DNA of 64,000 nucleotides from Candidatus Yanofskybacteria bacterium RIFCSPLOWO2_02_FULL_44_18 (GTDB taxonomy: Bacteria; Patescibacteriota; Minisyncoccia; 2-02-FULL-40-12; GWA2-44-9), in the NCBI GenBank assembly GCA_001794755.1, contig MGKT01000006.1, positions 40,700 through 104,699 on the forward strand, in the 5' to 3' direction. The notes under the pieces are model-generated. The model saw only the letters and a program-made list of their open reading frames with translations, ran no database searches and was not told the DNA's origin. Each line of letters starts with the position of its first letter. The stretch's first letter is position 1. Positions 12,903 to 31,596 of the stretch are shown piece after piece. A program made the translations under genes and the position numbers.

Positions 12903-14297
12903 TTATTTCTCCAGTTTCAGCTTCAGTTCCCTCAACTGCTTAGGGCTAATTTCAGACGGCGACTCCATCATAAGATCTCTCGCGTCTCCCGTTTTCGGAA
13001 AGGCGATTACTTCTCTGATGTTGGGTTCATTATTTAAAAGAGTAATCAAACGATCAAGGCCCCATGCGATTCCGCCGTGAGGCGGGGCGCCCAGACCCAA
13101 TGCCTCCAGCATGTGTCCGAAATTATCACGGATAGCATTCTTTTCAAATCCCATAATTTCGAAAACGGATTCCAGAGCTTCAGGCCGGTGGTTGCGAAGG
13201 CTCCCGCCGCCGATTTCCGATCCATTCAGAACAACGTCATACTGGGAAGTAAGAATATCATCAATATTCTTTTTATCCAGTAAGTCAGACATATATTCGG
13301 GCTTCGGAGCGGAAAACGGATTGTGTGTGAATGTGTATCTGCCAGATTCTTCATCTTTTTCAAAAAACGGAAAGTCGATAATCCAGCAAAAGGCCAAAAG
13401 ATTGGGGTCATTTTTGTCGTTTCTTAAATCGGGCCTGTCTGTCCCGTATTTTTCCATCGCCTCTTTAAAAGAAAGTCTTGGAAACGGGATTTCCTGGATT
13501 TTCTTTTCCGGGCATATTTTTTCGACGATATCTATCAGCAGTTCTTCATTGATGTTTATGAGATTTTCCCTGTCCGCGAAACTCATTTCCAAATCGAGCT
13601 GGGTAAATTCCGGCTGCCTGTCTCCCCTCGTATCCTCGTCCCGAAAACATCTGGCGATTTGAAAATATTTCTCAACTCCGCCGACCATTAACAATTGTTT
13701 GTATTGCTGGGGTGATTGGGGCAAAGCAAAAAACTTTCCCGGATACATGCGGGACGGGACGACATAATCTCTGGCTCCTTCTGGAGTCGATTTGGTTAAA
13801 ATGGGCGTCTCGATTTCGATAAAGCCTCTATTGTCAAGCCAATTGCGGATAAACAATATAATTTTATGTCTGACAGACATATTCTTTGACATCCTCTGTC
13901 TTCTCAAATCAATATATCTGTACTTCATCCGATTCTCCTCGCCAATCTCATATCCGTCCGTATCCAGAGCGAATGGCGGCGTTGCCGCTTCATTGAGAAT
14001 ATCCACCTCCAGCGGCGACAGTTCCACTTTACCCGTTTCCAATTCCGGATTAATCATTTTCTCGGGTCTGGCCTGAACCCGCCCTTTAACATTAACGACC
14101 CATTCCGATCTTAATTTTTCGGCTTTCTTGTATATTTCCTCATTATCCGGAGTAAAAACAACTTGAATCACTCCCGTCTTGTCCCTTAAATCAAGAAATA
14201 TCAGTTTGCCGTGATCGCGGCGATTATGAACCCAGCCGAATAAATTAACTTCCACGTCAATCAAATCTTTAGTTTCGCGGATATGGGTCCTTTGCAT
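12903..14297 (-). CDS. aspS: aspartyl-tRNA synthetase (short form lacking the GAD insertion)
   Basis: 464 aa with an N-terminal OB anticodon-binding domain (LFGWVHNRRDHGKLIFLDLRD) and class II motifs (FRDEDTRGDRQPEFTQLD; GGGSLRNH; GLGAPPHGGIAWGLDRL). Confidence 0.9.
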   Translation of the reverse strand: MQRTHIRETKDLIDVEVNLFGWVHNRRDHGKLIFLDLRDKTGVIQVVFTPDNEEIYKKAEKLRSEWVVNVKGRVQARPEKMINPELETGKVELSPLEVDILNEAATPPFALDTDGYEIGEENRMKYRYIDLRRQRMSKNMSVRHKIILFIRNWLDNRGFIEIETPILTKSTPEGARDYVVPSRMYPGKFFALPQSPQQYKQLLMVGGVEKYFQIARCFRDEDTRGDRQPEFTQLDLEMSFADRENLININEELLIDIVEKICPEKKIQEIPFPRLSFKEAMEKYGTDRPDLRNDKNDPNLLAFCWIIDFPFFEKDEESGRYTFTHNPFSAPKPEYMSDLLDKKNIDDILTSQYDVVLNGSEIGGGSLRNHRPEALESVFEIMGFEKNAIRDNFGHMLEALGLGAPPHGGIAWGLDRLITLLNNEPNIREVIAFPKTGDARDLMMESPSEISPKQLRELKLKLEK

Positions 14298-14344
14298 TAA
14301 CTAATATTACCAACAAAAATCCGCTCGTTCAAGCGGATATCTAT

Positions 14345-15370
14345 CTAAATGTCTATCAAGGCGTGGTCAAGAGTTCTATCGATTTTCGACATAAGTTCGA
14401 AAAGCTTATGTTTCACGTCCATGTAATCTGAAGGGCTCATTTCCGGTTTGAAGGGGCTACGTTGATGAGGCAAATCCACCAAAATAGACGCCGTCAATCT
14501 TTCGAGAAGATTTAGGGTAATGCACTCGGCCAGCCACGCTTCGGCGAAATAATTACTGCCGGCATTCACAAAGCCTCGCAGCCATCTCAAGCAATGGAAA
14601 AGAAGGGTATCGGCATCAAATTTATCAACCAGATGTAAAACATCATTCCAAATCCAGGCCGCGGGCGGATAAATCGGCCCTCTCTCCACAATCGGCGAGT
14701 TTAGAACATAATAATAATGACTCGAGAATCTGATGTCAGTGTTACCGAAATGGGCGAAAAAGTAAGATGGGACCATCATCGGCTGTCCGGCTTTTTCGAT
14801 TATCCGGTCGCGATATCTGGACAATGTTCTCAACTCATCAGGCGATAATGTCTCGGGTTTGCCCTCTGCGCCGAACCATTTATCAAATCTCTGTCTGAAA
14901 TAATCCGGCGCTGATAACTGCGGCGGTTTAAAATCCTTAAACACAAAATACGTCCGCCAGTAAATCAGCGTGACTTTGGCTATCTCTTCATCGGAAGGCC
15001 GCGCGATTTCTCTGACTGGAGAGATGTTGCTTTCCAATTTCTTGTGAATGACGTAGTCAAAAGCCTGACTATTAAATCTGGTCCCGCCGGCCCGTAAAAC
15101 AGTGGGCGCTCGCAATGCCAGCGATACGTTTTGAGTCTGTCTTATTTTCTCGTACTTCTGCCAGTCAGCCGCCGAATCAAATAAATTAACATCGGCTTCT
15201 CCGGCCACAATTAGAGTAGCGGGATGTCCTCTGTACCGGCCGTGCTTGATAATTTCTCTAAGCTGGCCCTGACCCAGACGCACTTGCCAGCCGGGATTGG
15301 AATTATCTTCCTCAAAATCGGTCGCTGAAATTACCACATTGTACCCTTCTAGCAAATCTTGAGTTTTCAT
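14345..15370 (-). CDS. hypothetical protein (341 aa), no recognisable domain
   Basis: Long ORF with coding-like composition and no motif I can assign. It borders the tRNA-Lys island. Confidence 0.4.
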   Translation of the reverse strand: MKTQDLLEGYNVVISATDFEEDNSNPGWQVRLGQGQLREIIKHGRYRGHPATLIVAGEADVNLFDSAADWQKYEKIRQTQNVSLALRAPTVLRAGGTRFNSQAFDYVIHKKLESNISPVREIARPSDEEIAKVTLIYWRTYFVFKDFKPPQLSAPDYFRQRFDKWFGAEGKPETLSPDELRTLSRYRDRIIEKAGQPMMVPSYFFAHFGNTDIRFSSHYYYVLNSPIVERGPIYPPAAWIWNDVLHLVDKFDADTLLFHCLRWLRGFVNAGSNYFAEAWLAECITLNLLERLTASILVDLPHQRSPFKPEMSPSDYMDVKHKLFELMSKIDRTLDHALIDI

Positions 15371-15482
15371 GTTTCTCCATTCTAAAACAACTGGCGATGA
15401 TAGTAAACAACATTTTCCTCCTTGTCAATATTTAAAAATAATCGGATAGGAAATATAATCCCTGAAGTACATGGGTGGGATT

Positions 15483-15853: not shown

Positions 15854-15883
15854 AGCCCAGCGTTAATCACGCTGGGCTTTTTG
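15854..15883 (+). terminator. hairpin (9-bp stem) + T-tract overlapping the stop codon of the PEP-utilizing gene; terminator-like on the + strand
   Basis: AGCCCAGCG-TTAATCA-CGCTGGGCT followed by TTTTG. The minus-strand gene's TAA stop sits in the loop. Confidence 0.45.
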
Positions 15884-18800
15884 AATGATGTGAACTACTC
15901 CTTTATTTCCATCTACTTCTACAATGTCCCCGTCTTTAATGAGGTCAGTAGCATTTCCAGTTCCTACTACACAGGGGATGTTCATTTCTCGACTCACGAT
16001 AGCGGCGTGAGACATCATGCCTCCTTGATTGGTAACAATTGCAGAAGCTTTTGAGCAAACGGGCATAAGCTCTGGCGAAGTAGTTTCTGCTATAAGAATA
16101 TCTCCGTTCACCATACTTTCCATTATCTTTTTCAGCCCATCAAAATTTCCATAATCAGCAATAATAACCTTTGCCATGCCTCTAACTTTTCCCTTATTGG
16201 CTGTTTTACCTTTAATTTCAGAGTGGAATTCGGGGGTAACAGTGTCAAATTTAGATACGATTACTTCCGCTTCTTTTCCATTTATATAAGTAAGATTCTC
16301 CCCATCACCAATCATTACATATGCACACTTTCTATCTTCTAAAATTGATGTTGAGACTTTTTGGTTTTCAAACAAATTAAGTAAATCACTCCTACTGTAA
16401 AGCATCAAAGAGTCCACTTCTACTCTAAATTGCTTTTGGAGTATGCTTAATATGGAAAAAAGAGCACTTTCGCTACCAAAGAATAATTTATTAAGATATT
16501 CACGTCCCGAATTTTTGATGCGCTCAAAATGCTTTAGATTCTCACTAGTTATTTCATCATTAAGTGAATACTGGTAAGCATCATCTGTAGCAAAGAACTC
16601 TGTTCTTCGATAAAAATGAAAGAGAGTTGACAAATTGATTAAAAACTCTTCCAAGTCTGCTCTAGTCAGCCTATCCTTTTTAGAGATTTTCTCAAAGTGT
16701 TCTGCTGTCTTCTTTTTATATGCTTCAAAACCATTACTATACTCATCAAATTTTTCCTTACTGCTGTATAGTTCTACCCCTTCTATTAGCGTATCTTTTA
16801 TAGATTGTTTTGGTAGATAAGTAGTCCAGATTCCATGTGCCAACATAGAAAACCCTTTAATCTTTTTGTATTCAGTCATAAAGATATCCGAAATGATATA
16901 AGGCATTCCCCCTACTTGGAAAAGTCTCTGATAATAATTGGGATCTTTAATGCCTAGATTATTTTCAATTATCTTTATAACACCAGTATCCGCATTCACT
17001 TCCACTAAGTCTCCATCCTTGAGTACTTTTGTTGCAATTTTTGTTCCTATAATGCAGGGTTTTCCCATCTCTCTTGCTGTAATGGCGGCGTGACTAGTGA
17101 CACCTCCTTCGTCAGTGACAAAAGCTGATGCTTTCTTCATGGCTGGTAAGAAGTCTGGGTTTGTCATCGGAGTCACCATAATGTCGCCTTCGTTTACTCT
17201 ATTGATATCAGTTTTAGTTAAGACTATTACCACTTTTCCTTTTGAGATTCCCTTATGAGCAACATTACCCCTTATCTCATTTGTTCCACTTATAACCTCA
17301 TCTTTTTCAATTTCAATACCAAGTTCTCGTTCGACCTGGATTAATGTCCTGTTATAGTAAAATTTATGGTCGTGAAAGATAAAATGTTCATCTCGTTTTC
17401 TCAACTCGTCTACAGTCGGTAACATACCTAAAATCTCATTGATGCTTAAAATCTTGGAGAAAGGAATTGCATAATCGGGGACAATCATCGGTATTGCTTT
17501 TTCAAATGTGGCGTTGGCATTGTAAAAGAAGTCTTCTGTTGATTTTCTTTGCTCTAGGCAGGCTTCTTTAGCTTTTGATGGCGCATCTTCAATTGCAGGC
17601 ACAAAATATATTATTGCGAATAAACTTTGAGTTCTGGCAAGCTTTTCGAAGAAAACTTCAAGGTTTTTCTTATTGGGTTTACTCAACAGCTGGCTTTCAA
17701 GCTTTTTTATTTCCTTTAATGCTTTCTGATAATTTTCAGTGATTTCTTCTACCCAGCCACTTCTAGCCAATTTTTTCTTAATAGCTTTAGTGGCATCAGC
17801 AAAAATCTTCTCATCTTCATATACTGTAAGCATTCCATTCGCTCGCTCGTAGACCAGTCTATCTGTAGTAACTCCTATCCAATTTTCAAGATATTCCGTA
17901 TCGCTTTTCTCCCAAAATTCGATAGCTGCTACGCATACATCTCTACTAACATTTTTTTTAAATAATGATTTCTTTTCACTGAACTCACCAATTATAGATA
18001 AATCTTCATCGATTAAGATATTATTTTCTTCTTGGAATTTCTCTAGATCTTTCCCAGTCGTTATATTCCCTTCAAAGAAAATAAAGAAGTCGTTTCGATT
18101 ATCAAGAGTTTCTTTATTTGGGATTTTATTGGAAAGCAATTCCTTAATTGATATGACATTTGCGTATTCCGCCAAATCAGGATATTGAAATTTAATTGCT
18201 CCAATTAGGGCATCTCCATGTTCATACTCGCCTGCCTGTGAGAGTTCTCTTAATTTGTAAGATTTTTCTATAATCGCTTTTGGAAGTTCCTTATTTGTGC
18301 TATTCCCAAATTGAACTATCACAGGCAAAAATCCCCAAAAATCCACGGAAGTTTTGTAAAAATCTTTTATATTTGTGTTTCGATAATTTATAGCAAATTG
18401 ATGCAGTTTCTTATAATCTTCCTCAAACTTTTTAGCTAAAGGTCTAAATTTGTCAGGATTATTTATAAAGAAATCAAAAAGCGGCTTAATGGCGGTATCC
18501 GGATTGTTGATGTCGTAGTAAACACTTGTATTGCCATCACTCGTTTTTATAAATAATGGATTAAATCTAGTTGAACCTTGTAGGAGTTTATTGAAAGCAT
18601 CATATTCGCCCTCCCACCAGTATTCCATAGTTACGAGGGAGAGCTTCCTGGTAAAGAATTTTTTGAAATGTCTTATGGGAGTTTTATTGGAAAGAGTGGT
18701 AATAGGTCTGCTCTGAGTTATGTAAAATTTACCATCCTCATATGCCCACTCAATATCACAAGGAAATCCGTAATGGTTTTCAATCTTAATTACAAGGTCA

Positions 18801-19630
18801 GCTAATTCCATAATCTGCGACACATTTAACACCTGTGATGAAGCTTTTGGCTCTGGTATTTCCTTCCACTCATTTTCTCCCCTTCTCGATTTATACAGAC
18901 CTCTCCTTTGAGTATTTACTGTTGTATCAATTATTTGTCTCGACTCCTTTTCAACAACATAAGAGTCGGGAGTTATAGAACCAGATACAATAGCCTCCCC
19001 AAGCCCAAAGCCAGCTTCGATGATGAGTTGATTTCTATCCTCCGTAATTGGATGGACCGAAAACGCTATTCCAGATACTTCCGACTGAACCATTTTCTGC
19101 ACCACAACGGCTACGGAAATACCCGTGCCGTGAAGTTCTTTTTCGAAGCGATAAAAGATTGCTCTGGGAGTAAAGAGAGAAGACCAGCATTTCTTAACTT
19201 TATCGAGTAAGTCATCTTCCGTGGTATTTAAATAACTCTCTAACTGACCTGCCCAGGCATGCTCCGCTCCGTCCTCTGCTGTGGCAGATGAGCGAACGGC
19301 CACAAACTCCGCCCGGAGTGCCTTAGATGCCCTTAAAATCTCGTCAGAAATGTCTTGCGGCAATTCTTCATTCTCAATTAGCCCTCGTATCTTTTCGGAA
19401 GCGCCCTCTACGGTGTGTATTGCTTTGTGGTCTACAGTCTTGAGTATCGCCTCAATTTCTTGAGCTAAATCTGTTTCGTGTAAAAATCGGTCAAAGGTTC
19501 CAGAGAGCACAACAAAACCATCTGGCACAGGAAGTCCTGCTTGTGTCATCTCACCAAGAGATGAACCTTTACCACCAGCGAGAAGTGAGTCGGTCTTCTT
19601 TATTTCATTAAAATTTTTAATCAGTTCCAT
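15863..19630 (-). CDS. PEP-utilizing enzyme family giant protein: PPDK-N (ATP-grasp nucleotide-binding) domain + two phosphohistidine swivel domains, no PEP/pyruvate TIM barrel (rifampin-phosphotransferase-like architecture, duplicated His domain)
   Basis: 1255 aa. The N-terminal ~310 aa match the PEP synthase/PPDK ATP-binding domain (…VAVRSSATAEDG…, …CDIEWAYEDGKFYITQSRPIT). Two PEP-utilizing 'mobile' domains carry the catalytic His motifs GGVTSHAAITAREMGKPCIIG (~aa 830) and GGMMSHAAIVSREMNIPCVVG (~aa 1200). An SD-like AAGGGATT precedes the ATG. AT content is higher than that of neighbouring genes. Confidence 0.8.
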   Translation of the reverse strand: MELIKNFNEIKKTDSLLAGGKGSSLGEMTQAGLPVPDGFVVLSGTFDRFLHETDLAQEIEAILKTVDHKAIHTVEGASEKIRGLIENEELPQDISDEILRASKALRAEFVAVRSSATAEDGAEHAWAGQLESYLNTTEDDLLDKVKKCWSSLFTPRAIFYRFEKELHGTGISVAVVVQKMVQSEVSGIAFSVHPITEDRNQLIIEAGFGLGEAIVSGSITPDSYVVEKESRQIIDTTVNTQRRGLYKSRRGENEWKEIPEPKASSQVLNVSQIMELADLVIKIENHYGFPCDIEWAYEDGKFYITQSRPITTLSNKTPIRHFKKFFTRKLSLVTMEYWWEGEYDAFNKLLQGSTRFNPLFIKTSDGNTSVYYDINNPDTAIKPLFDFFINNPDKFRPLAKKFEEDYKKLHQFAINYRNTNIKDFYKTSVDFWGFLPVIVQFGNSTNKELPKAIIEKSYKLRELSQAGEYEHGDALIGAIKFQYPDLAEYANVISIKELLSNKIPNKETLDNRNDFFIFFEGNITTGKDLEKFQEENNILIDEDLSIIGEFSEKKSLFKKNVSRDVCVAAIEFWEKSDTEYLENWIGVTTDRLVYERANGMLTVYEDEKIFADATKAIKKKLARSGWVEEITENYQKALKEIKKLESQLLSKPNKKNLEVFFEKLARTQSLFAIIYFVPAIEDAPSKAKEACLEQRKSTEDFFYNANATFEKAIPMIVPDYAIPFSKILSINEILGMLPTVDELRKRDEHFIFHDHKFYYNRTLIQVERELGIEIEKDEVISGTNEIRGNVAHKGISKGKVVIVLTKTDINRVNEGDIMVTPMTNPDFLPAMKKASAFVTDEGGVTSHAAITAREMGKPCIIGTKIATKVLKDGDLVEVNADTGVIKIIENNLGIKDPNYYQRLFQVGGMPYIISDIFMTEYKKIKGFSMLAHGIWTTYLPKQSIKDTLIEGVELYSSKEKFDEYSNGFEAYKKKTAEHFEKISKKDRLTRADLEEFLINLSTLFHFYRRTEFFATDDAYQYSLNDEITSENLKHFERIKNSGREYLNKLFFGSESALFSILSILQKQFRVEVDSLMLYSRSDLLNLFENQKVSTSILEDRKCAYVMIGDGENLTYINGKEAEVIVSKFDTVTPEFHSEIKGKTANKGKVRGMAKVIIADYGNFDGLKKIMESMVNGDILIAETTSPELMPVCSKASAIVTNQGGMMSHAAIVSREMNIPCVVGTGNATDLIKDGDIVEVDGNKGVVHIIQKAQRD

Positions 19631-19663
19631 AATCCCTTATCATCGACGTTAGCGACCCTATGT

Positions 19664-19717
19664 TTGTCCGCCCTGCAGGACTCGGTCACGGATAATTTGC
19701 TCGTCAGTCACTCGCAA
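19664..19717. repeat. att-like direct repeat copy 2: tRNA-Lys 3'-end core + Y arm
   Basis: TTGTCCGCCCTGCAGGACTCG + gtcacggataatttgctcgtcagtcactcgcaa, identical to 15791-15844. Confidence 0.75.
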
Positions 19718-19740
19718 ATTTCCTTGACCACGGCTCGCGG

Positions 19741-19760
19741 TTGCAATCTGCTGATTGCAA
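19741..19760. repeat. perfect palindrome TTGCAATC-TGCTG-ATTGCAA in the spacer between att copies
   Basis: 7-bp inverted arms (TTGCAAT/ATTGCAA) around a 6-nt centre. It is the only palindrome in the 50-bp spacer between repeat copies 1 and 2. Confidence 0.5.
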
Positions 19761-19799
19761 CATCGCTCCGCCTTTCTCGTCCGGCAGACAACTTCGTTG

Positions 19800-19872
19800 T
19801 CCGCCCTGCAGGACTCGAACCTGCGACCCTCTGCTTAAAAGGCAGGTGCTCTACCAACTGAGCTAAGGGCGG
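19800..19872 (-). tRNA. tRNA-Lys (anticodon UUU)
   Basis: Minus-strand sequence CCGCCCT-TA-GCTC-AGTTGGTA-GAGC-A-CCTGC-CTTTTAA-GCAGA-GGGTC-GCAGG-TTCGAGT-CCTGC-AGGGCGG-A. The acceptor stem (7 bp), D arm, anticodon arm and T arm all form. The anticodon loop CU-UUU-AA has U33 and A37. CCA is not encoded. Confidence 0.85.
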
Positions 19873-22171: not shown

Positions 22172-23740
22172 CTACTCTTTTTTCTTCAAAGCATCCTGAA
22201 GCAGTTTTCTCAATTCATCGGTATTGGTTTCCTTTTTCTCTTTGTCCTTCTGGCTTTTTTCAACCCGGCGGCCTTTAAAATCAACGGCCCCTCTGTTTAA
22301 GTCTCGCAATGAGGCGGACCTGGAGCCGACATTGGCTTCTTGTATTCGGCTGCGGCGGTCGGCATCCCTGGCCGGTGGACGCATCGGGGCCGGCGGGCGG
22401 ATCGGACTTCTCTGGGGCGTAAACTGCCTTTCTCTTTCCATATTTTCTTGGGCCACCCATCCCATCCAGTCCGCAGTATGTTTTTCGACAATTTCTTTCG
22501 GCGTCGTAAACTGTTCGCGCGATGCGGAGACAATTTCTTTTTTGAAATTTACTTCCGGTTTCGGAAACGGCGGCAATGTCCCGGCTGAAAACGGCTTAGA
22601 GGAGATACCATCAATCATCAGTCTTAAATATATGTTGTATTTTCCCAAATTGACCAAATCCGTCATTGTAAAATCAGGTTCATACCATCTTTCCAGAAAT
22701 TCGGCGTCCTCCGCTCCGACGCGGAATGTGACTAAAGTGCCGACGTTGCCGAATACGGCATCTCTGACGACTTCTTCCATTTGAGTAATATACTGATGGC
22801 CCAGCGTCAGGCATAAATGGTATTTTCTGGCCTCGGATAATATGTTTACGAACGATTCGGTGGCAAAATTTTGAAACTCATCGACATAGAGATAAAAATC
22901 AGGCCGCTGATTTTCAGGCACATCAACGCGCGACATGGCTGCTAGCTGTAGTTTAGTAATCAAAAGCGCTCCCAAAAGACGCGAAGCATCCTCGCCAATT
23001 TCGCCTTTTGACACGTTTACAATTAATATCTTGCCCTCATCCATAATCTTGCGCATGTCGATTTTTGAACGCGGCTGGCCGATGATATTCCTGATAACGT
23101 TGTTGGAACTGAATTGGCCAACCTTATTTTGAATCGCGGCTGTGGCTTCGGTCGCAAACTTATCCGCATATTTCGCGAATTCATCAATCCAGAAACCTTT
23201 GACAATCGGGTCTTTGATGTTGGATACGACCTCTTTTCGATATTCCTTGTTGGAAAGCATCCGGTTGATGCCGAGAATGGTGGAATTGGGATACTCAAGC
23301 AAGGCCAGTATCGTGTTATTTAAAATATATTCCATTCGGCCCGACCAGGCATCCACCCATATTTTCTTGAAAACACCCAGAAGACCGCTGGCCACGAGAT
23401 GGCGATATTCAAAAGGGACTTTCTCCATGACGTTGAACGCGATTGGAAAATCAAGGTCATTGGGTTGGAAATATATAACGTCTTTGATTCTCTCTTCTGG
23501 CACGAAATCAAGAAGGTCAATCGCTGCGTCTCCGTGAGGATCAATAAAGGCAACGCCGCGTCCGGCTTCGATGTCCTGTATGGCCATGTTCTTCATGAGC
23601 TCAGATTTGCCCATACCGGTCGAGCCGATAACGTAAACGTGGCGGCGGCGGTCATCCGGTTTTACGCCAAATCGAACTTTCTTGTTCCGAAAATTTGTCT
23701 CTCCCAAAAATACGATATCTCTTTCGTCTGTTTGTCTCAT
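22172..23740 (-). CDS. VirD4/TraD/TraG-like type IV secretion coupling-protein ATPase homologue (T4SS DNA-transfer domain)
   Basis: 522 aa with Walker A VIGSTGMGKSE, …FIDPHGD…, Walker B-like …LYVDEFQNF…, and a long charged, disordered C-tail. Confidence 0.65.
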   Translation of the reverse strand: MRQTDERDIVFLGETNFRNKKVRFGVKPDDRRRHVYVIGSTGMGKSELMKNMAIQDIEAGRGVAFIDPHGDAAIDLLDFVPEERIKDVIYFQPNDLDFPIAFNVMEKVPFEYRHLVASGLLGVFKKIWVDAWSGRMEYILNNTILALLEYPNSTILGINRMLSNKEYRKEVVSNIKDPIVKGFWIDEFAKYADKFATEATAAIQNKVGQFSSNNVIRNIIGQPRSKIDMRKIMDEGKILIVNVSKGEIGEDASRLLGALLITKLQLAAMSRVDVPENQRPDFYLYVDEFQNFATESFVNILSEARKYHLCLTLGHQYITQMEEVVRDAVFGNVGTLVTFRVGAEDAEFLERWYEPDFTMTDLVNLGKYNIYLRLMIDGISSKPFSAGTLPPFPKPEVNFKKEIVSASREQFTTPKEIVEKHTADWMGWVAQENMERERQFTPQRSPIRPPAPMRPPARDADRRSRIQEANVGSRSASLRDLNRGAVDFKGRRVEKSQKDKEKKETNTDELRKLLQDALKKKE

Positions 23741-24987
23741 ATTGGCAGATCAGCCGGCGCCTCCCCTTTCTTGGCCTCAATCCTGGGCAACGTCGCTGTT
23801 TTTACTCCAACATCGGGTATATGGAATATCGACGCCAATTCTTCCGTGTTTAAAACATAAGATTTATCCAAAAATTTTCTTTTTTTGTATCCTTTGTATA
23901 ACTCCACTTTATGATTATACTCTCTGCTTTTTTTAAATACCCAATCAAAATCCGCCGAGATTTTCTTAAAACCGTTGAGGCTTAAGGACGAGAACTGCTT
24001 CAACGTGCCGGATATAACGGCCGGGCGGCTTTTGTTGAATGTCTCCACCGGAGATATGTATACCATTCTTAGGGTGGATTTAAATCCCAATTTTGTGATA
24101 TTTCTTTCAATCGCCTTCAATGCCTCCAGCTTTCCGGGTGTTAATTTCATGCTTGAGAATTCATCCGCTTTCTTATCATCTTTACCCCCAGCCCCGAACA
24201 AAGAATCAATGAAGTCAAAAAACACATTGAATATGTTTTTCTTTACTTCTTCCTTCTTGCCCGTCAGCTTGTCAATTACTTTCTGGGAGTCTTTAACCCA
24301 GTCTTCTCCTTTTTTTGACTGGATTAGTATTTGTAACGCCAGACACTCGCCGGGTCCAAGCAGACTCATGCCTTCAACCAGCGAAGCCAAGGGATCAATT
24401 CTTTGATATTCGTCTTTTCCAGGATTTTTTTCCTCAAAATCGACATAGGTTCGAATCGGATAGGCATCGGGTTTTTCCAGCGTGAATTCACCGACGGCTA
24501 TGTCTGTTTTGTCATCGGGAAGCGTATCGGGATACGCGGCCATATAATCATCAGCGAGGTAAATTTCAGCTTCCGGAAACTGGGCGTATATTGATGACTC
24601 GACCAGATTCCGATGCGCTTCAAGAGTTCTGATAAAAAAATGTATTTCTCCGCCCATGCTCACCAATTCCAAGGAAAACCAATCGCCGACTTTGCCTTTC
24701 CAAAATCCTTCAACCCACTTTTTTCTGACACCGCCCGGAGCGCTGTGCAAAGCGGCAAAAATCTGCTCCATGGCCAAAGGGCTGCGTTTTGATTCTCGGG
24801 GTAATTTCAATTCAAGCATTATCCACTTGAGATTGGATAGGTATATGGATTTTTTGTAATCCTTGAACATGTCAAAGACGACCAAAAACAAAATCACGGG
24901 CGCAATCGCCCACCAATATGAGAACATTGTTAAAAAAACGTTTCCGAGAATATCCCAAACGGGACCTAAAAAGTCAGTGACTAGCAT
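23737..24987 (-). CDS. membrane protein co-encoded with (4-nt overlap) the VirD4-like ATPase; function unknown
   Basis: 416 aa with two N-terminal TM helices and then a soluble domain. Its stop and the ATPase start overlap by 4 nt. Confidence 0.45.
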   Translation of the reverse strand: MLVTDFLGPVWDILGNVFLTMFSYWWAIAPVILFLVVFDMFKDYKKSIYLSNLKWIMLELKLPRESKRSPLAMEQIFAALHSAPGGVRKKWVEGFWKGKVGDWFSLELVSMGGEIHFFIRTLEAHRNLVESSIYAQFPEAEIYLADDYMAAYPDTLPDDKTDIAVGEFTLEKPDAYPIRTYVDFEEKNPGKDEYQRIDPLASLVEGMSLLGPGECLALQILIQSKKGEDWVKDSQKVIDKLTGKKEEVKKNIFNVFFDFIDSLFGAGGKDDKKADEFSSMKLTPGKLEALKAIERNITKLGFKSTLRMVYISPVETFNKSRPAVISGTLKQFSSLSLNGFKKISADFDWVFKKSREYNHKVELYKGYKKRKFLDKSYVLNTEELASIFHIPDVGVKTATLPRIEAKKGEAPADLPI

Positions 24988-25035
24988 ATCGTAATTCTAA
25001 TCTAACCGTAGGCATCAATCAATACTCCGTGTTGG

Positions 25036-25067
25036 GCGCAATCCCGATGGCCTCATCGGGATTGCGC
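25036..25067. repeat. perfect 14-bp GC-rich inverted repeat (GCGCAATCCCGATG-gcct-CATCGGGATTGCGC)
   Basis: 14/14 complementarity with a 4-nt loop and no flanking U-tract on either strand. It lies between the stop of the sigma-r4 gene and the start of the membrane-protein gene. Confidence 0.6.
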
Positions 25068-25080
25068 GAATTGACTTTGA

Positions 25081-26139
25081 TTAGAGTTCCTTGAGTTTAT
25101 ACGTTCCGTCTTCCTGCTTGTGAAAGATGTCCGTATCCTGGAGATTGAGCAAAATCGTATTTTCCTTAACCATGCGCATGTCTTTCACCTTGGCCACAAG
25201 CTGGGCCTTTGGCATCGGTTTTTGAGCGTTCCGAAGAATATCCACCAGTACGTCTTTCACGGTGCCCGCCTTATATCCCCAATCCGAAAGAGCGTACATG
25301 CCGCGGCCGACCAGAATAAAACGATTATCTTTAATCAGTTCATTATGAACAGTCTGGACGTTGGCCCGACGGTTATCAAATCTGGATGCATTTATTAATC
25401 TGGCAATATCAGAAAAATGGCGAGGCTGATTTTCTTTCTTTAAAACCAGATAGGCTTTATCCCTGACGCCTTTGGGCTGTATTTCCGGCCAAGCCGCAAG
25501 ACCGATTTCATTAAAAATATTTTTATCGATTTTTTTAGACACGTTTAAGGCCAGATTGACATGATTTTCATTTAACGGCTGGCTGTCAAATCCGGACACA
25601 TTCGTCTTTCTGGCCAAAGACAGCAGTTCTTCTTTTGACATAACATTGTTGTGACGAGCCAGAGTTGAAATTAGGCTCTCGGTCATAGCCTTAAATCCCT
25701 TGGAATGTTCACCGCTTAATGCCCAGAAAGCGTGATATGTATCATTTTCTGAAAAACGTTCTAATTTGTTACTAAGGGTGAGTATAAAAACAAGACCGGA
25801 ATTTTGGGCCGTTTCTTTTTCTGAGCCGGTAGCAATGCCGAAAAGGCCGCTTTCTTTTATAACGCCCTGGTGATCGTCGATTATATTCTTGACGGTTTCA
25901 ATGTGAAACTGCGCGTCGGGCAGGGCAGAAATGTTCTTTGCAAGCTGTTTTAACGTAGCTTCTTCAATCTGGCGAACTCTTTCTCTTGTGATTTTATAAC
26001 TGGCTCCGATTGACTCCAGGGTTTCTTTTTTCCCTTTTATAAGACCAAAACGGCGAGACAGAATGTCTCGATTTCGAGGTGAAAGGGTTTTTAAGACGGC
26101 CTTTACCGTCTTATTTATTTGTGAGAAATTACTTGCCAT
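25081..26139 (-). CDS. sigma-70 region-4 (HTH) domain protein with a long C-terminal domain of unknown function
   Basis: 352 aa. The N-terminus LSPRNRDILSRRFGL…ETLESIGASYKITRERVRQIEEATLKQL is a canonical sigma-70 region 4/LuxR-like HTH. The remaining ~280 aa match nothing I can assign. Confidence 0.55.
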   Translation of the reverse strand: MASNFSQINKTVKAVLKTLSPRNRDILSRRFGLIKGKKETLESIGASYKITRERVRQIEEATLKQLAKNISALPDAQFHIETVKNIIDDHQGVIKESGLFGIATGSEKETAQNSGLVFILTLSNKLERFSENDTYHAFWALSGEHSKGFKAMTESLISTLARHNNVMSKEELLSLARKTNVSGFDSQPLNENHVNLALNVSKKIDKNIFNEIGLAAWPEIQPKGVRDKAYLVLKKENQPRHFSDIARLINASRFDNRRANVQTVHNELIKDNRFILVGRGMYALSDWGYKAGTVKDVLVDILRNAQKPMPKAQLVAKVKDMRMVKENTILLNLQDTDIFHKQEDGTYKLKEL

Positions 26140-28424: not shown

Positions 28425-29060
28425 CTACACGTCAGACACCTTGGTTTCCGTACTCGCCCCGTCGGCGATCCGGATCAACGACTGGAGAAGTTTCTGGATG
28501 ACATCGGCCGGCGCCACGAGTGTCAGTTTGAACTCGAGCTTTTTTCGTGGCGGTTCCCGCACCGGCTCGGTTTTGTCTTCCCACGGCCGGCGCATGATTT
28601 GCATCGCATGGTCGGCAAGGTCGACGAACTCGAACTCACCCTTCTCGAACAGGTCGATCAACGACTGGCTGATGGAGGTTGAGCTCCCATTTCCAGCCTT
28701 TGTTCCGACCCAGACGATCCTTGCACCTCCTTCTTTCTTGATGCGAAGATTCGATACGAAATCCTGGTCGTTGGAAACGATGATGATCTCGTTCGCTTTC
28801 GTTTCGTTGATGAGCGCGTAAATTACCGCGTCATCGGCACCCGGCTCATCCACCGGAATCACTTCAAACCCTGCCGTCCGCAGGTGTTTGCCGAATGCTT
28901 TTTCACTGGCCCTATTTAGGACGTATGTCATGCGTTCAAGTTCCGCCGATTTGCCGAGTCCCCTGAGCAACGCAGCCAGCTCACCGAAGTTGAAAACCCC
29001 GATGCCAAGAGCCCGCCGCATCCATGAGAGCGAGTTGCCATCCACGAAAACTGATTTCAT
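28425..29060 (-). CDS. NYN-domain (LabA/PIN-like) putative ribonuclease with a ~70-aa C-terminal extension, in a high-GC islet
   Basis: 211 aa. The N-terminus MKSVFVDGNSL…IIVSNDQDF matches the NYN/LabA signature (vFvDgeN … D). A strong SD TAGGAGCCGAT precedes the ATG. The region 28375-29345 is about 56% GC. Confidence 0.65.
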   Translation of the reverse strand: MKSVFVDGNSLSWMRRALGIGVFNFGELAALLRGLGKSAELERMTYVLNRASEKAFGKHLRTAGFEVIPVDEPGADDAVIYALINETKANEIIIVSNDQDFVSNLRIKKEGGARIVWVGTKAGNGSSTSISQSLIDLFEKGEFEFVDLADHAMQIMRRPWEDKTEPVREPPRKKLEFKLTLVAPADVIQKLLQSLIRIADGASTETKVSDV

Positions 29061-29162
29061 ATCGGCTCCTAAAGGTACTGTGGGGTGAAATACCCCAATA
29101 TCTTATATTATATCATAATTTTATTAAAAACGCAAGAGCGCCGTGTGGGCGCTCTGTATGGG

Positions 29163-29327
29163 CTACATATTATCCTGTCCTTCTGATCCCCCGGCCATCG
29201 GCGTTGAGGATTCGTCGTGTCCCTCGGCGGACGGTTGCATCGTGCTCTCGCCACCGCACTTGGAACAATTCGCTACGGCTTCGACCGATTCTTCGGTATT
29301 GCCGCATGCTGTACATTTATACATCAT
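29163..29327 (-). CDS. small zinc-ribbon protein (C-x2-C…C-x2-C), 54 aa, co-oriented upstream of the NYN gene
   Basis: Not in the ORF track (<60 aa). Manual translation of the minus strand gives MMYKCTACGNTEESVEAVANCSKCGGESTMQPSAEGHDESSTPMAGGSEGQDNM*. It has high GC, an acidic tail and four Cys in two CxxC pairs. Confidence 0.45.
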   Translation of the reverse strand: MMYKCTACGNTEESVEAVANCSKCGGESTMQPSAEGHDESSTPMAGGSEGQDNM

Positions 29328-29413
29328 TAGTTTTTCCGGTTAATTAAATATTGAACCGGCATTATATTTTATTTTTCGACGCAGTGTTTCTTATTATATC
29401 ACATATCTAGAAA

Positions 29414-30859
29414 TCAAGCCATATCCGTTTCCAGCTTCTCCTTTGACTTATGGGGCTTTTGTCCGCTAAGCCATTCTTTTATGACCATAGTCGCCCGAAC
29501 GTCATCTTCGTTGTATTTAAGAAGTTTTTGAAACATCTCATCGGAATGGCTGTTCAGCCATTCATTGTACCAGACCACCGATTCCGCTCCGCCGGCCTCG
29601 GGATCATTCCATGTATATCCGAAATATCCGGCCGTGTCTTTAAGGCTGTAGAAGTAGAGGGGAAGGACGACCGAATCAACGAGTTTGGCGTGCAGATCAA
29701 TCGTATTTTCCTTGAATTTATCAACCAAAGATTGGGGCGCCCCGTAGCGCAAAGCCAATCTGTCAAAAACCTGCCGCTCGTAATACGCATAATGATATAT
29801 GACAAAATCATCCAGACCGGTGAGAAAATCAAGAAATCCCCTCCAGATATCCGGCTCTTCCGATTTATCTTTGGCGAAAAAATATCTGTACTGGGTTTTA
29901 CCGGTTTCGGTGTTTTTTATCAGAAATCCGAGAAGATAATCTATGTCGTGAGTAGGATCGCTCTCTATGTCAAAATAGACTTCATTTTTGACTGCCGGAA
30001 AACTGGACTTGGCCAATATCTTTGTCTCATTTGTTATTAAGGACTTGGCCTGATTGGAAAACCTGACAATCTTATCGAATGGCCAATCTTCTAGCTTATT
30101 TCTCAATTCTTCAATATCGGCATTCGCCAAATCATCCACTGTCTTGATTCCGATATCATATAGCCGTCTTTGGTCGGACTGGCTGACTTTGTGCACCAGA
30201 GAAACATCGTTGCAGCCTTGAGTTTCGGCCAGGCATATTGAATACCAAGGGGTGCGGCGGCAGCCGGATTTCAGAAACGGAGCCGGCTTTTCGCCGTTTA
30301 GTATTTTCTGGATTTGATTTCTGGTCAGATGAAACTGGTCAAGATAGTCGTCAATTAAAAATGAGCGCTCGTTGCCTTGAGGATCGATGACATAAGCTTC
30401 TTTGGGCCGCGTGCCCTGCAGCCGCTCCAGAATCAGACTGTAGAATATAAGCTGAAATTTGTAATCGTCGCCCAAATCCAACGATCTCTGGGCATCGTAT
30501 ACGACATATTCCCAATTCCCGAAATTTGATTTCCCTGGCCGAGCTTCAAGCAAATCAGGCATGCCCACCCAATCCTTATCCATTAACACGCCATGATAAA
30601 TATTTTTCCCCTGTTTCATCAGATCCAGCGTCGCTATCAAAGCTTCGTCGAGGTCTTGAAGCATTTCCGGCTTTATTATTTCAAACTGCTTGTGATTGCT
30701 CAACACATTATGGGCGTCAATCATTTTCCCTTTATGTATCAAATCCAAAAGGGGCGGCACTTTCTTTTTCTTTTCGGCATCGCCGTATATGTCATACCAA
30801 ATCCAGTGCGGACACTGGAAAAACTTATAGAAATGTTCAGCGGTGAGTTTTTGTTCCAT
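29414..30859 (-). CDS. TM0106-family RecB-like nuclease: N-terminal PD-(D/E)xK/Cas4-like domain + C-terminal RNase-H-like (YprB) 3'-5' exonuclease domain
   Basis: 481 aa. The N-terminus has FFQCPHWIWYD (Cas4/RecB-type). The C-terminus has …VYFDIESDPTHDIDYLLGFL… (DEDD-like exonuclease motif). Confidence 0.6.
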   Translation of the reverse strand: MEQKLTAEHFYKFFQCPHWIWYDIYGDAEKKKKVPPLLDLIHKGKMIDAHNVLSNHKQFEIIKPEMLQDLDEALIATLDLMKQGKNIYHGVLMDKDWVGMPDLLEARPGKSNFGNWEYVVYDAQRSLDLGDDYKFQLIFYSLILERLQGTRPKEAYVIDPQGNERSFLIDDYLDQFHLTRNQIQKILNGEKPAPFLKSGCRRTPWYSICLAETQGCNDVSLVHKVSQSDQRRLYDIGIKTVDDLANADIEELRNKLEDWPFDKIVRFSNQAKSLITNETKILAKSSFPAVKNEVYFDIESDPTHDIDYLLGFLIKNTETGKTQYRYFFAKDKSEEPDIWRGFLDFLTGLDDFVIYHYAYYERQVFDRLALRYGAPQSLVDKFKENTIDLHAKLVDSVVLPLYFYSLKDTAGYFGYTWNDPEAGGAESVVWYNEWLNSHSDEMFQKLLKYNEDDVRATMVIKEWLSGQKPHKSKEKLETDMA

Positions 30860-31596
30860 TATTCTTCTGGTATTAATAAATAATCTTGATCTGTTTCAGT
30901 CGCGTGGGATACGGGCAGGTGTCCAGACGCTCGAATAACATAATTGCAATGCTCACAAGTTGGACTGGCCTGGGGCGCTTCTTCTTGTCTGGCCGCATGG
31001 ACAGCTTGGTTGAATGTATTCTCGATCCAGCTTGGGTTTACACCCACTCTTCTCAACTCTTCTTTGAAGGGCAGGGAATTTTGAAATCCACCGCCGTCTT
31101 TCTGGACAACATAGAAAACAAAGTAAGCGTGGGGCTGGGTGGCGAATCCATTTTTTCCCAAAAGATAAGTGTAAACGTCCATTTGTTTCTGATAGTCATC
31201 GTAAATCCTGATTTCCCTCGAACCGGATGATTTGTAATCCACGACTGCCAAAGAGCCGTCCGAAAATTCTAAAACATCATCAACCGCTCCGTATAATCGC
31301 GCGTTAAGCTCCTCATCAAAAAATGAAACGCCTTTAAAATTATTGCGCCATTCGGTAAGTTCCGGGCCTGAATACAATTTGGCATCAATATTTTCAAAAA
31401 CGGCTGGCAGTTCGCCTCGTTCACGATATTTATCGAATTCTTGTTTGACTAAATAATCCACTGCCGCCGACAGCGTATAGGGATATCCGGGCGGCCTCTT
31501 TATTTTATGGTGCAAATCAAGCCAAAAACACTTCGGACACTCTTGAAAAAGTTTCAGGCCACTGCGCGATATTTTTAACGGATTACTAATCATCAC
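30859..31596 (-). CDS. PD-(D/E)xK nuclease, Cas4/AddB-like with a 4-Cys Fe-S cluster
   Basis: 245 aa. It has an N-terminal QECPKCFW, a core …GAVDDVLEF…LAVVDYKSS…QMDVYTYLL (D…EVVDYK…Q..Y), and a C-terminal CEHC. Confidence 0.6.
   Translation of the reverse strand: MMISNPLKISRSGLKLFQECPKCFWLDLHHKIKRPPGYPYTLSAAVDYLVKQEFDKYRERGELPAVFENIDAKLYSGPELTEWRNNFKGVSFFDEELNARLYGAVDDVLEFSDGSLAVVDYKSSGSREIRIYDDYQKQMDVYTYLLGKNGFATQPHAYFVFYVVQKDGGGFQNSLPFKEELRRVGVNPSWIENTFNQAVHAARQEEAPQASPTCEHCNYVIRASGHLPVSHATETDQDYLLIPEE

Follow-up and report, generated by a model that had tools for sequence, protein, structure and literature searches.

What does a coupling-type ATPase do on a bacterial chromosome when no other gene of a type IV secretion system (T4SS) surrounds it? 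The question was raised by a gene pair in a 64-kb window of RIFCSPLOWO2_02_FULL_44_18, a Candidatus Yanofskybacteria bacterium (the window is the whole stretch of DNA analyzed, and the coordinates of its features are counted from its first base). The pair consisted of an ATPase gene and, immediately upstream, a gene for a DUF8128 partner protein with a predicted membrane anchor. Judged from the sequence comparisons below, the pair is one protein split at a domain boundary (gene fission), and the reading that we favor, at slightly better than even, is that of a split coupling ATPase of a chromosomal monoderm-type T4SS. The features of the pair were as follows:

23737-24987, minus strand: DUF8128 partner gene, 416 amino acids (aa), from the list of open reading frames (ORFs)

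22172-23740, minus strand: ATPase gene, 522 aa, from the ORF list

23737-23740, minus strand: 4-nucleotide (nt) overlap ATGA of the partner stop codon and the ATPase start codon, read directly in the sequence

24859-24927, minus strand: sole stretch of strong hydrophobicity in the partner (residues ~21-43), predicted membrane anchor, from hydropathy

22451-23740, minus strand: ATPase core (residues 1-430), P-loop nucleotide-binding domain (NBD) of the type of TrwB and of the VirB4 C-terminal domain (CTD), from families and model

22172-22450, minus strand: disordered R/P-rich ATPase tail (residues 431-522), from composition and pLDDT (predicted local distance difference test)

Both minus-strand ORFs and the 4-nt overlap of the initial annotation were confirmed in the ORF list and by reading ATGA. 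The overlap suggests translational coupling of partner and ATPase. The estimated gap between the two genes in 65 related loci ranged from -6 to +411 nt (median ~16), so adjacency was kept but the overlap was not.

The ATPase carried a Walker A motif GSTGMGKS (residues 39-46; 23603-23626) and a Walker B motif YLYVDE (residues 283-288; 22877-22894), each invariant in 98 homologues. Three Pfam families matched it above gathering threshold: TrwB_AAD_bind (34.3 bits; cut-off 20.5), DUF87/HerA (31.7; cut-off 23.2), and TraG-D_C (26.8; cut-off 22). The T4SS-DNA_transf family (PF02534), recorded for some fused relatives (see below), gave no match to the window ATPase at E <= 1, P-loop_TraG reached 13.8 bits (below its cut-off of 25.8), and the Pfam families CagE_TrbE_VirB and AAA_10 gave no match. 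The initial annotation of a Walker A/B ATPase of the type IV coupling protein (T4CP) kind was thereby borne out; as for the two families it had proposed as checks, TrwB_AAD_bind passed and T4SS-DNA_transf did not. In NCBIfam, only sub-threshold matches were obtained (to the TraD, CD1115-VirD4, and CedD families), a profile comparison (hhalign) with TrsK of pSK41 gave a weak partial match (E 0.019), and the nearest solved structures by sequence were TrwB and DotL. As a P-loop NBD with both Walker motifs intact, the ATPase core falls within the VirB4/VirD4/FtsK-HerA clade. In the structural model (pLDDT 80.9), the Walker motifs were separated by a helical insertion (~110-235), and the tail was disordered; the Walker A/B NBD is shared with VirD4/TrwB/TraD coupling proteins, and the insertion may correspond to the all-alpha domain within theirs. 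The catalytic residues were invariant and the ATPase was 55-79% identical across genera, which suggests that the enzyme is active and strongly selected.

Many T4CPs end, as the window ATPase does, in a disordered C-terminal tail. The 92-aa tail contained 15 R and 7 P, and pLDDT was below 50 over residues 452-506; the tail had initially been described as KE-rich, which held for the last ~35 residues, the disorder being confirmed and the overall composition being mainly R/P-rich. The tail ended in a motif, ..SL..L...VDFKGR..(K-rich)..EL(R/K)K.L(Q/E)(D/E).L(K)KKE, that was present in 73/120 split homologues and 0/92 fused ones and is specific to split (Paceibacteria-type) proteins; tail residues F488 and L510 were invariant in ATPase homologues. 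The ATPase chain contained no hydrophobic segment (maximum 19-aa hydropathy 1.15), and its lack of a membrane domain, with the anchor on the separate DUF8128 gene, is one difference from the canonical T4CPs.

In precomputed annotation, the gene product identical to the partner was assigned to Pfam PF26449 (DUF8128), as were 120/120 of the homologues listed; a local Pfam scan gave no PF26449 match, and the local copy may lack that model. Two N-terminal transmembrane helices had been annotated initially: two helices were indeed present in the AlphaFold model (residues 2-23, weakly hydrophobic, and 25-52), but only residues ~21-43 were strongly hydrophobic, and a single hydrophobic segment was found in 109/120 partner homologues. 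W25, W26, and P30 were invariant. The AlphaFold model (pLDDT 85.9, predicted TM score 0.80) began with a helical hairpin at the N-terminus and continued into an alpha/beta domain; it ended in an extended C-terminal peptide (~380-416), conserved and modeled at low confidence, whose consensus EELA..H.PD.G......PR.EAKKGE.P..LP corresponded to the interdomain linker of fused forms. A Foldseek search with this model placed twelve TrwK chains on top (probability 0.95-1.00) and EccE next. No RecA-like ATPase was among the structural matches, and therefore the match must be to the N-terminal domain (NTD) of VirB4; according to the model, the alpha/beta domain has the VirB4 NTD fold. Profile comparisons of DUF8128 with pSK41 TrsD and with a VirB4-like protein of an Embleya plasmid detected no similarity, and the DUF8128-VirB4 NTD link is structural only, without sequence-level homology. 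Similarity to the EccE-EccC proteins of type VII secretion was much weaker; no type VII secretion genes were present, and no sequence similarity was found.

The relation between the two genes was indicated by fused relatives. PHROG 5156 (824 positions, unknown function) covered the partner with its positions 77-359 and the ATPase with its positions 396-806; the profile spans both, and therefore a fused protein must exist. Fused DUF8128-ATPase proteins were found as follows: (i) gp156 (825 aa) of Bacillus phage G and gp27.4 (906 aa) of Bacillus phage SPO1; (ii) WP_331738717.1 (812 aa) of the Embleya plasmid, a conjugative plasmid of actinobacteria, annotated as 'type IV secretory system conjugative DNA transfer family protein'; and (iii) proteins of 725-1,140 aa in the Patescibacteria lineages Berkelbacteria, Falkowbacteria, Gottesmanbacteria, and Saccharibacteria, annotated with PF26449 and PF10412 (plus PF01935, PF02534, and PF12696 in some). 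When the window proteins were compared by BLASTP with 120 fused relatives, colinear matches to both halves were obtained in 87, and the projected junction was -6 to +13 residues; the junction being seamless, the pair is therefore a gene fission. The fused Patescibacteria proteins displayed were 42-57% identical to the window proteins in the ATPase half and 22-32% identical in the DUF8128 half, and the phage and plasmid fused forms were ~30% identical in the ATPase half. BLASTP did not relate the partner significantly to gp156 of phage G (E 0.19), whereas profile comparison located DUF8128 at the N-terminus of gp156 (probability 96.6%, E 7e-10); against the Embleya protein, the DUF8128 profile match was full-length and colinear but weak (E 9e-4). 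An exhaustive ATPase search returned 6,401 cluster representatives at E <= 1e-30, and the closest 150 included 87 split-type proteins and 57 fused to DUF8128. A Sulfitobacter plasmid match with 40% identity was an isolated ATPase gene amid transposases and was uninformative. The partner, initially taken for an unknown separate membrane protein, is thus better described as the detached N-terminal half of this fused protein. The window pair and the fused proteins have the same two modules in the same order; the fused ones differ in being a single polypeptide, in having no tail motif, in lacking an N-terminal hydrophobic segment in many cases (29/92), and in adjoining VirB4 and Replic_Relax genes in several clusters, which the window pair does not.

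Fused relatives within such clusters point to the role of the family. The Embleya plasmid cluster had the order PrgI, XF1762, VirB4-like ATPase, fused protein, Replic_Relax, and NlpC/P60. On a 996-kb Patescibacteria contig, a fused orthologue (49% identical in the ATPase half) divergently adjoined a PrgI-like gene, beyond which lay two small ORFs, a VirB4-like gene, and Peptidase_M23, at ~8 kb from dnaA and dnaN. The VirB4-like gene of this contig (L093, 6264-8122) was 36-39% identical to that of Embleya and was annotated in two directly adjoining pieces (ORFs of 387 and 231 aa), owing to either a real split or an assembly frameshift. In phage G (L004, 1196-5338), VirB4-like gp155 was followed by fused gp156; in SPO1 (L005, 774-6284), the actin-like protein gp27.9 (ALP) lay near the fused DUF8128-type ATPase gp27.4, which preceded the Replic_Relax protein gp27.3. 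Both lytic Bacillus phages have a plasmid- or conjugation-like module; the literature searches on this phage module met no described function. In Embleya, L093, and phage G, the fused relative stood beside a separate VirB4 and occupied the coupling-protein position, a further likeness to T4CPs.

An architecture with a VirB4-like NTD also raises the alternative that the pair is a second, divergent VirB4, mirroring the VirB3-VirB4 arrangement and acting as a structural channel ATPase and not as a substrate receptor. VirB4 proteins (TrwK, TrsE/PrgJ) considered together with VirB3, including VirB3-VirB4 fusions, share with the pair the membrane segment, the NTD fold, and a RecA-like CTD that includes a helical bundle. 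In Patescibacteria, VirB4 likewise has a separate companion resembling an NTD, TrsD, which is remotely homologous to the VirB4 N-terminal portion, and the virb4 hidden Markov model covers only ~54% of that VirB4 (PMC12102498). The hhalign comparison of the window ATPase with pSK41 TrsE gave E 3e-4, a weak match covering Walker A only. Four observations speak against this alternative: (i) VirB4-specific Pfam families stayed below threshold while T4CP families passed; (ii) a separate, true VirB4-like gene stood beside the fused form wherever it occurred in a T4SS cluster; (iii) a tblastn search of the Embleya plasmid with the ATPase gave one match, the fused T4CP gene, and left the neighboring VirB4-like gene unmatched; and (iv) the DUF8128 profile resembled neither TrsD nor the Embleya VirB4-like protein. 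The pair had a VirB4-like architecture, but the sequence families reaching threshold were those of coupling proteins, and a second VirB4 is considered very unlikely.

The DUF8128 product supplies the predicted membrane anchor and a cytoplasmic VirB4-NTD-like alpha/beta domain, and the ATPase product is the motor, an NBD of VirB4-CTD/VirD4 (TrwB) type with its helical insertion. Under the favored reading of a split coupling ATPase, the overlapping stop and start codons would favor equal amounts of the two halves, the DUF8128 C-terminal peptide would dock onto the ATPase N-terminus, and the complex would form a membrane-bound hexamer. As a T4CP, this hexamer would recruit substrates for, and energize, a T4SS encoded elsewhere (VirB3/PrgI, TrsD, VirB4, and VirB6). 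The substrate is more likely a protein, DNA, or nucleoprotein exchanged with the host cell, and it would probably not be a conjugative plasmid because relaxases are almost absent from Patescibacteria genomes (PMC12102498). The extra ~350-aa VirB4-NTD-like domain between anchor and NBD would distinguish this coupling protein from canonical VirD4 and TrwB, which have no such domain.

Where, then, is the secretion system? No VirB4, VirB3/PrgI, VirB6, relaxase, or integrase family was present among the Pfam-annotated genes checked across the 64-kb window, and tblastn with VirB4-like, PrgI, and Replic_Relax queries gave no match in it; the absence of VirB4, VirB6, and relaxase genes noted in the initial annotation was upheld. 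The label 'orphan' was correct at window scale, but not for the lineage as a whole: in one part of the PMC12102498 table, 37/44 Yanofskybacteria assemblies were VirB4-positive, including both RIFCSPLOWO2_12_FULL assemblies. In Yanofskybacteria GW2011_GWC2_37_9, VirB6, VirB3, TrsD, and VirB4 were genes 393-398, and the T4CP homologues were genes 238, 514, and 517 (PMC12102498 supplement). Across 2,918 Patescibacteria genomes, 5,713 VirD4-like T4CP homologues were counted, 148 of them near virB4, and T4CP genes are usually far from virB4 in many conjugative systems too (PMC12102498). It is very likely that a T4SS is encoded elsewhere in the source genome and not in an element that includes this pair.

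The conservation of the locus was assessed by scanning species-representative genomes with a DUF8128 alignment, after which 80 loci were fetched. The partner occurred in at least 577 species-level genomes, almost all from Parcubacteria/Paceibacteria-type Patescibacteria. An ATPase gene (55-76% identical) lay directly downstream of DUF8128 on the same strand in 65/77 loci with enough room; in the 12 exceptions, the next genes looked like housekeeping ones by their N-terminal sequence (NusA-like, MnmA-like, and others), one exception having the ATPase ~800 nt further on. The pair is therefore recurrent in the Candidate Phyla Radiation (CPR), as had been annotated. The annotated lack of a demonstrated function also stands: literature searches on DUF8128, the phage G/SPO1 genes, and the CPR protein-family paper yielded nothing on this pair, the name DUF8128 occurred in no paper of the library searched, and PMC12102498 does no more than list T4CP homologues far from virB4 and raise their exaptation. 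In one relative (L008), a second, shorter (394-aa) DUF87/TrwB-like ATPase gene was observed at 14251-15435, ~4.4 kb downstream of the pair, which fits the published number of T4CP-like paralogues per Patescibacteria genome (see below). One further gene belonged to the conserved arrangement:

25081-26139, minus strand: 352-aa protein, predicted to bind DNA, carrying Sigma70_r4 and two HARE-HTH domains, from Pfam

In 73/73 loci where it was detected (69/71 with enough room), this gene was the immediate upstream, same-strand neighbor of DUF8128, a tighter linkage than that between DUF8128 and the ATPase. The order RNase_H_2...SecD-SecF-Sigma70_r4/HARE-HTH-DUF8128-ATPase-(small ORFs)-HD recurred in three further genomes, with ATPases 64-74% identical.

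Several of these observations weigh against a T4SS coupling role. No T4SS gene was found within ~6 kb in the 80 related loci, the window pair sat inside a housekeeping block (SecDF, MraY, and FtsW), and its sequence conservation was far above that usual for coupling proteins of mobile elements. Patescibacteria genomes have ~2-3 T4CP-like paralogues, and the T4SS might in truth be served by another of these. Southlakia epibionticum has a t4cp homologue, which may or may not be of the DUF8128 type; it was non-essential while the T4SS genes were essential (PMC12102498). Among the assemblies in the same table part, 7/44 Yanofskybacteria, which are incomplete metagenome-assembled genomes (MAGs), were without VirB4, and GCA_000994085.1, likewise an incomplete MAG, had T4CP homologues and no VirB4 detected (PMC12102498 supplement). 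The docking of the halves and the hexamer are, moreover, inferences.

The same observations are what would be expected if the pair were a T4SS-independent, exapted housekeeping translocase, namely, a coupling-protein descendant working as a membrane-anchored hexameric pump like FtsK/SpoIIIE or Streptomyces TraB. Such a pump might take up or export DNA, handle nucleoprotein, or segregate chromosomes when cells divide, with the Sigma70_r4/HARE-HTH protein as its adaptor. The core synteny amid SecDF and envelope/division genes in every genome examined, the high identity across genera, the T4SS-free surroundings, the T4CP homologues in VirB4-lacking assemblies of the table part and supplement just cited, and the invariable DNA-binding gene upstream all fit it; so do the Saccharibacteria and Falkowbacteria fused genes, which had gyrB/gyrA or dnaX as neighbors and no T4SS gene in the vicinity, and the S. 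epibionticum result, from which its authors raised exaptation of T4CP homologues as a possibility (PMC12102498). But the fused orthologue of L093 adjoined PrgI and VirB4, the plasmid and phage relatives were always paired with a VirB4-like ATPase, and a single hydrophobic segment in each subunit offers little for building an autonomous channel; roughly one in three fused forms had no membrane segment whatever. FtsK is, in addition, mentioned in TM7x transcriptome papers. The Sigma70_r4/HARE-HTH gene was also absent upstream of the fused forms examined, and its linkage may be plain synteny for that reason; its product may bind DNA as the system's adaptor or regulator, or the gene could be a mere case of conserved gene order. 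An exapted translocase, the main rival reading, is possible but less likely than not. An identity as FtsK/SpoIIIE itself was rejected: there was no family match, the structural score was lower, and the combination of an FtsK_SpoIIIE motor with a polytopic N-terminal membrane domain and a gamma domain was not seen.

A related and distinctly improbable proposal is that the DUF8128-ATPase family is a surviving VirB4-VirD4 intermediate, a motor of coupling-protein type that has kept the VirB4 NTD, that was taken over in Patescibacteria as a core, possibly T4SS-independent, translocase and that, with the Sigma70_r4/HARE-HTH protein in Paceibacteria, moves DNA or nucleoprotein through the membrane, for example in the uptake of host nucleic acids. 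A role in host nucleic-acid acquisition would fit the dispensability of comEC for Southlakia growth.

Could the pair instead be mobile or defensive? Its initial link to a segment rich in horizontal gene transfer (HGT) was not supported: the GC content of the pair (0.456) equaled that of the local core, low-GC DNA began past a tRNA-Lys gene ~2.3 kb downstream and >10 kb upstream, and the order SecD-SecF-SigR4-DUF8128-ATPase was conserved across genomes. The locus is core chromosome and not a mobile element. A remnant of an integrative and conjugative element (ICE) or prophage, or else an anti-phage defense ATPase of HerA, DndH, or MADS type, would draw on the related ATPases of plasmids and phages, on the PADLOC matches of the window ATPase (mad8 at 1.4e-13 and weak HerA matches, at the level of generic ATPases), and on the variable low-GC island beyond the tRNA-Lys gene. 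Against it stand the same gene order in unrelated genomes, the core GC content, the thousands of orthologues with their high identity, the lack of any PADLOC match for the partner, and the absence nearby of an integrase, relaxase, nuclease, methylase, or other defense partner; an origin of this kind is extremely improbable. As separate candidates, an ICE or prophage remnant was rejected on the conserved synteny, the core GC content, and the lack of integrase and relaxase genes in the window, in agreement with the initial annotation, and a defense system was rejected since the PADLOC matches were generic and the neighbors were not defense genes.

The gene content of the wider window was as follows. 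Positions 1-15 kb carried cell-wall and repair genes (Mur ligase, FemAB, RuvA, UvrB, FtsW, MraY, and a tRNA synthetase), followed at ~15.9-19.6 kb (GC 0.36) by a 1,255-aa PPDK_N/PEP-utilizers gene and at 19799-19872 by the tRNA-Lys gene. The region 19.9-31.6 kb contained a 289-aa unknown gene, an HD/HD_assoc_2 protein, the pair, the Sigma70_r4/HARE-HTH protein, SecF, SecD, and NYN, RNase_H_2, and PD-(D/E)XK proteins, and SecA lay at 31.6-34.3 kb. From ~35000 to 64000 (GC 0.35-0.41), there was a long polysaccharide/glycosylation cluster (glycosyltransferases, sugar aminotransferases, epimerases, methyltransferases, a flippase-like protein, and a PMT-type mannosyltransferase), which was probably the HGT-rich segment meant in the initial annotation; SecA, SecDF, and other genes separated it from the pair. 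In a sister strain of otherwise identical context, the PPDK_N gene (window 15863-19872 region) was replaced by a 227-aa cyclodipeptide synthase (CDPS) gene (L002, 14119-14802), and the low-GC region at tRNA-Lys looks like a strain-variable island. Between SecA and SecD, three nuclease-type genes were observed (28425-31596, minus strand), of which RNase_H_2 was syntenic in other genomes:

28425-29060, minus strand: NYN/PIN-like gene

29414-30859, minus strand: RNase_H_2 protein, 481 aa, with weak Cas4-like and HhH matches

30859-31596, minus strand: PD-(D/E)XK gene

Two candidate expression signals lay between the Sigma70_r4/HARE-HTH gene and the pair:

25036-25067, minus strand: perfect 14-bp hairpin GCGCAATCCCGATG-AGGC-CATCGGGATTGCGC with a 4-nt loop and no T-run after it, read in the sequence

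24994-25022, minus strand: promoter-like TTGATT-17-TAGAAT, from a consensus scan with 9/12 matches, a weak pattern match

The hairpin, which was not flagged by a terminator scan that demands a T-run, may be a terminator or attenuator; the promoter-like site followed it, just upstream of the partner ATG.

Patescibacteria, ultra-small bacteria that live on other cells, account for a large part of bacterial diversity; no T4SS before their chromosomal one had been shown to be essential for the organism that carries it (PMC12857230, PMC12102498). The occurrence of T4CP homologues far from virB4 in Patescibacteria and DUF8128 as a Pfam entry were already known. As far as the searchable literature shows, the following had not been described: (i) the partner as a detached N-terminal half, (ii) its VirB4 N-terminal fold, (iii) the split/fused orthology across the radiation, and (iv) the membership in the family of proteins from phage G, phage SPO1, and actinobacterial conjugation clusters. 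What had looked like a widespread 'orphan' T4CP homologue is identified as one conserved family, fused or split, with a VirB4-like NTD; a domain of unknown function gains a fold and a context, and an unexplained gene pair of Bacillus phages G and SPO1 is tied to the same family. A possible route from VirB4 to the coupling proteins is suggested by the family, which also gives genetics and structural work a precise target in the inner-membrane part of the machine.

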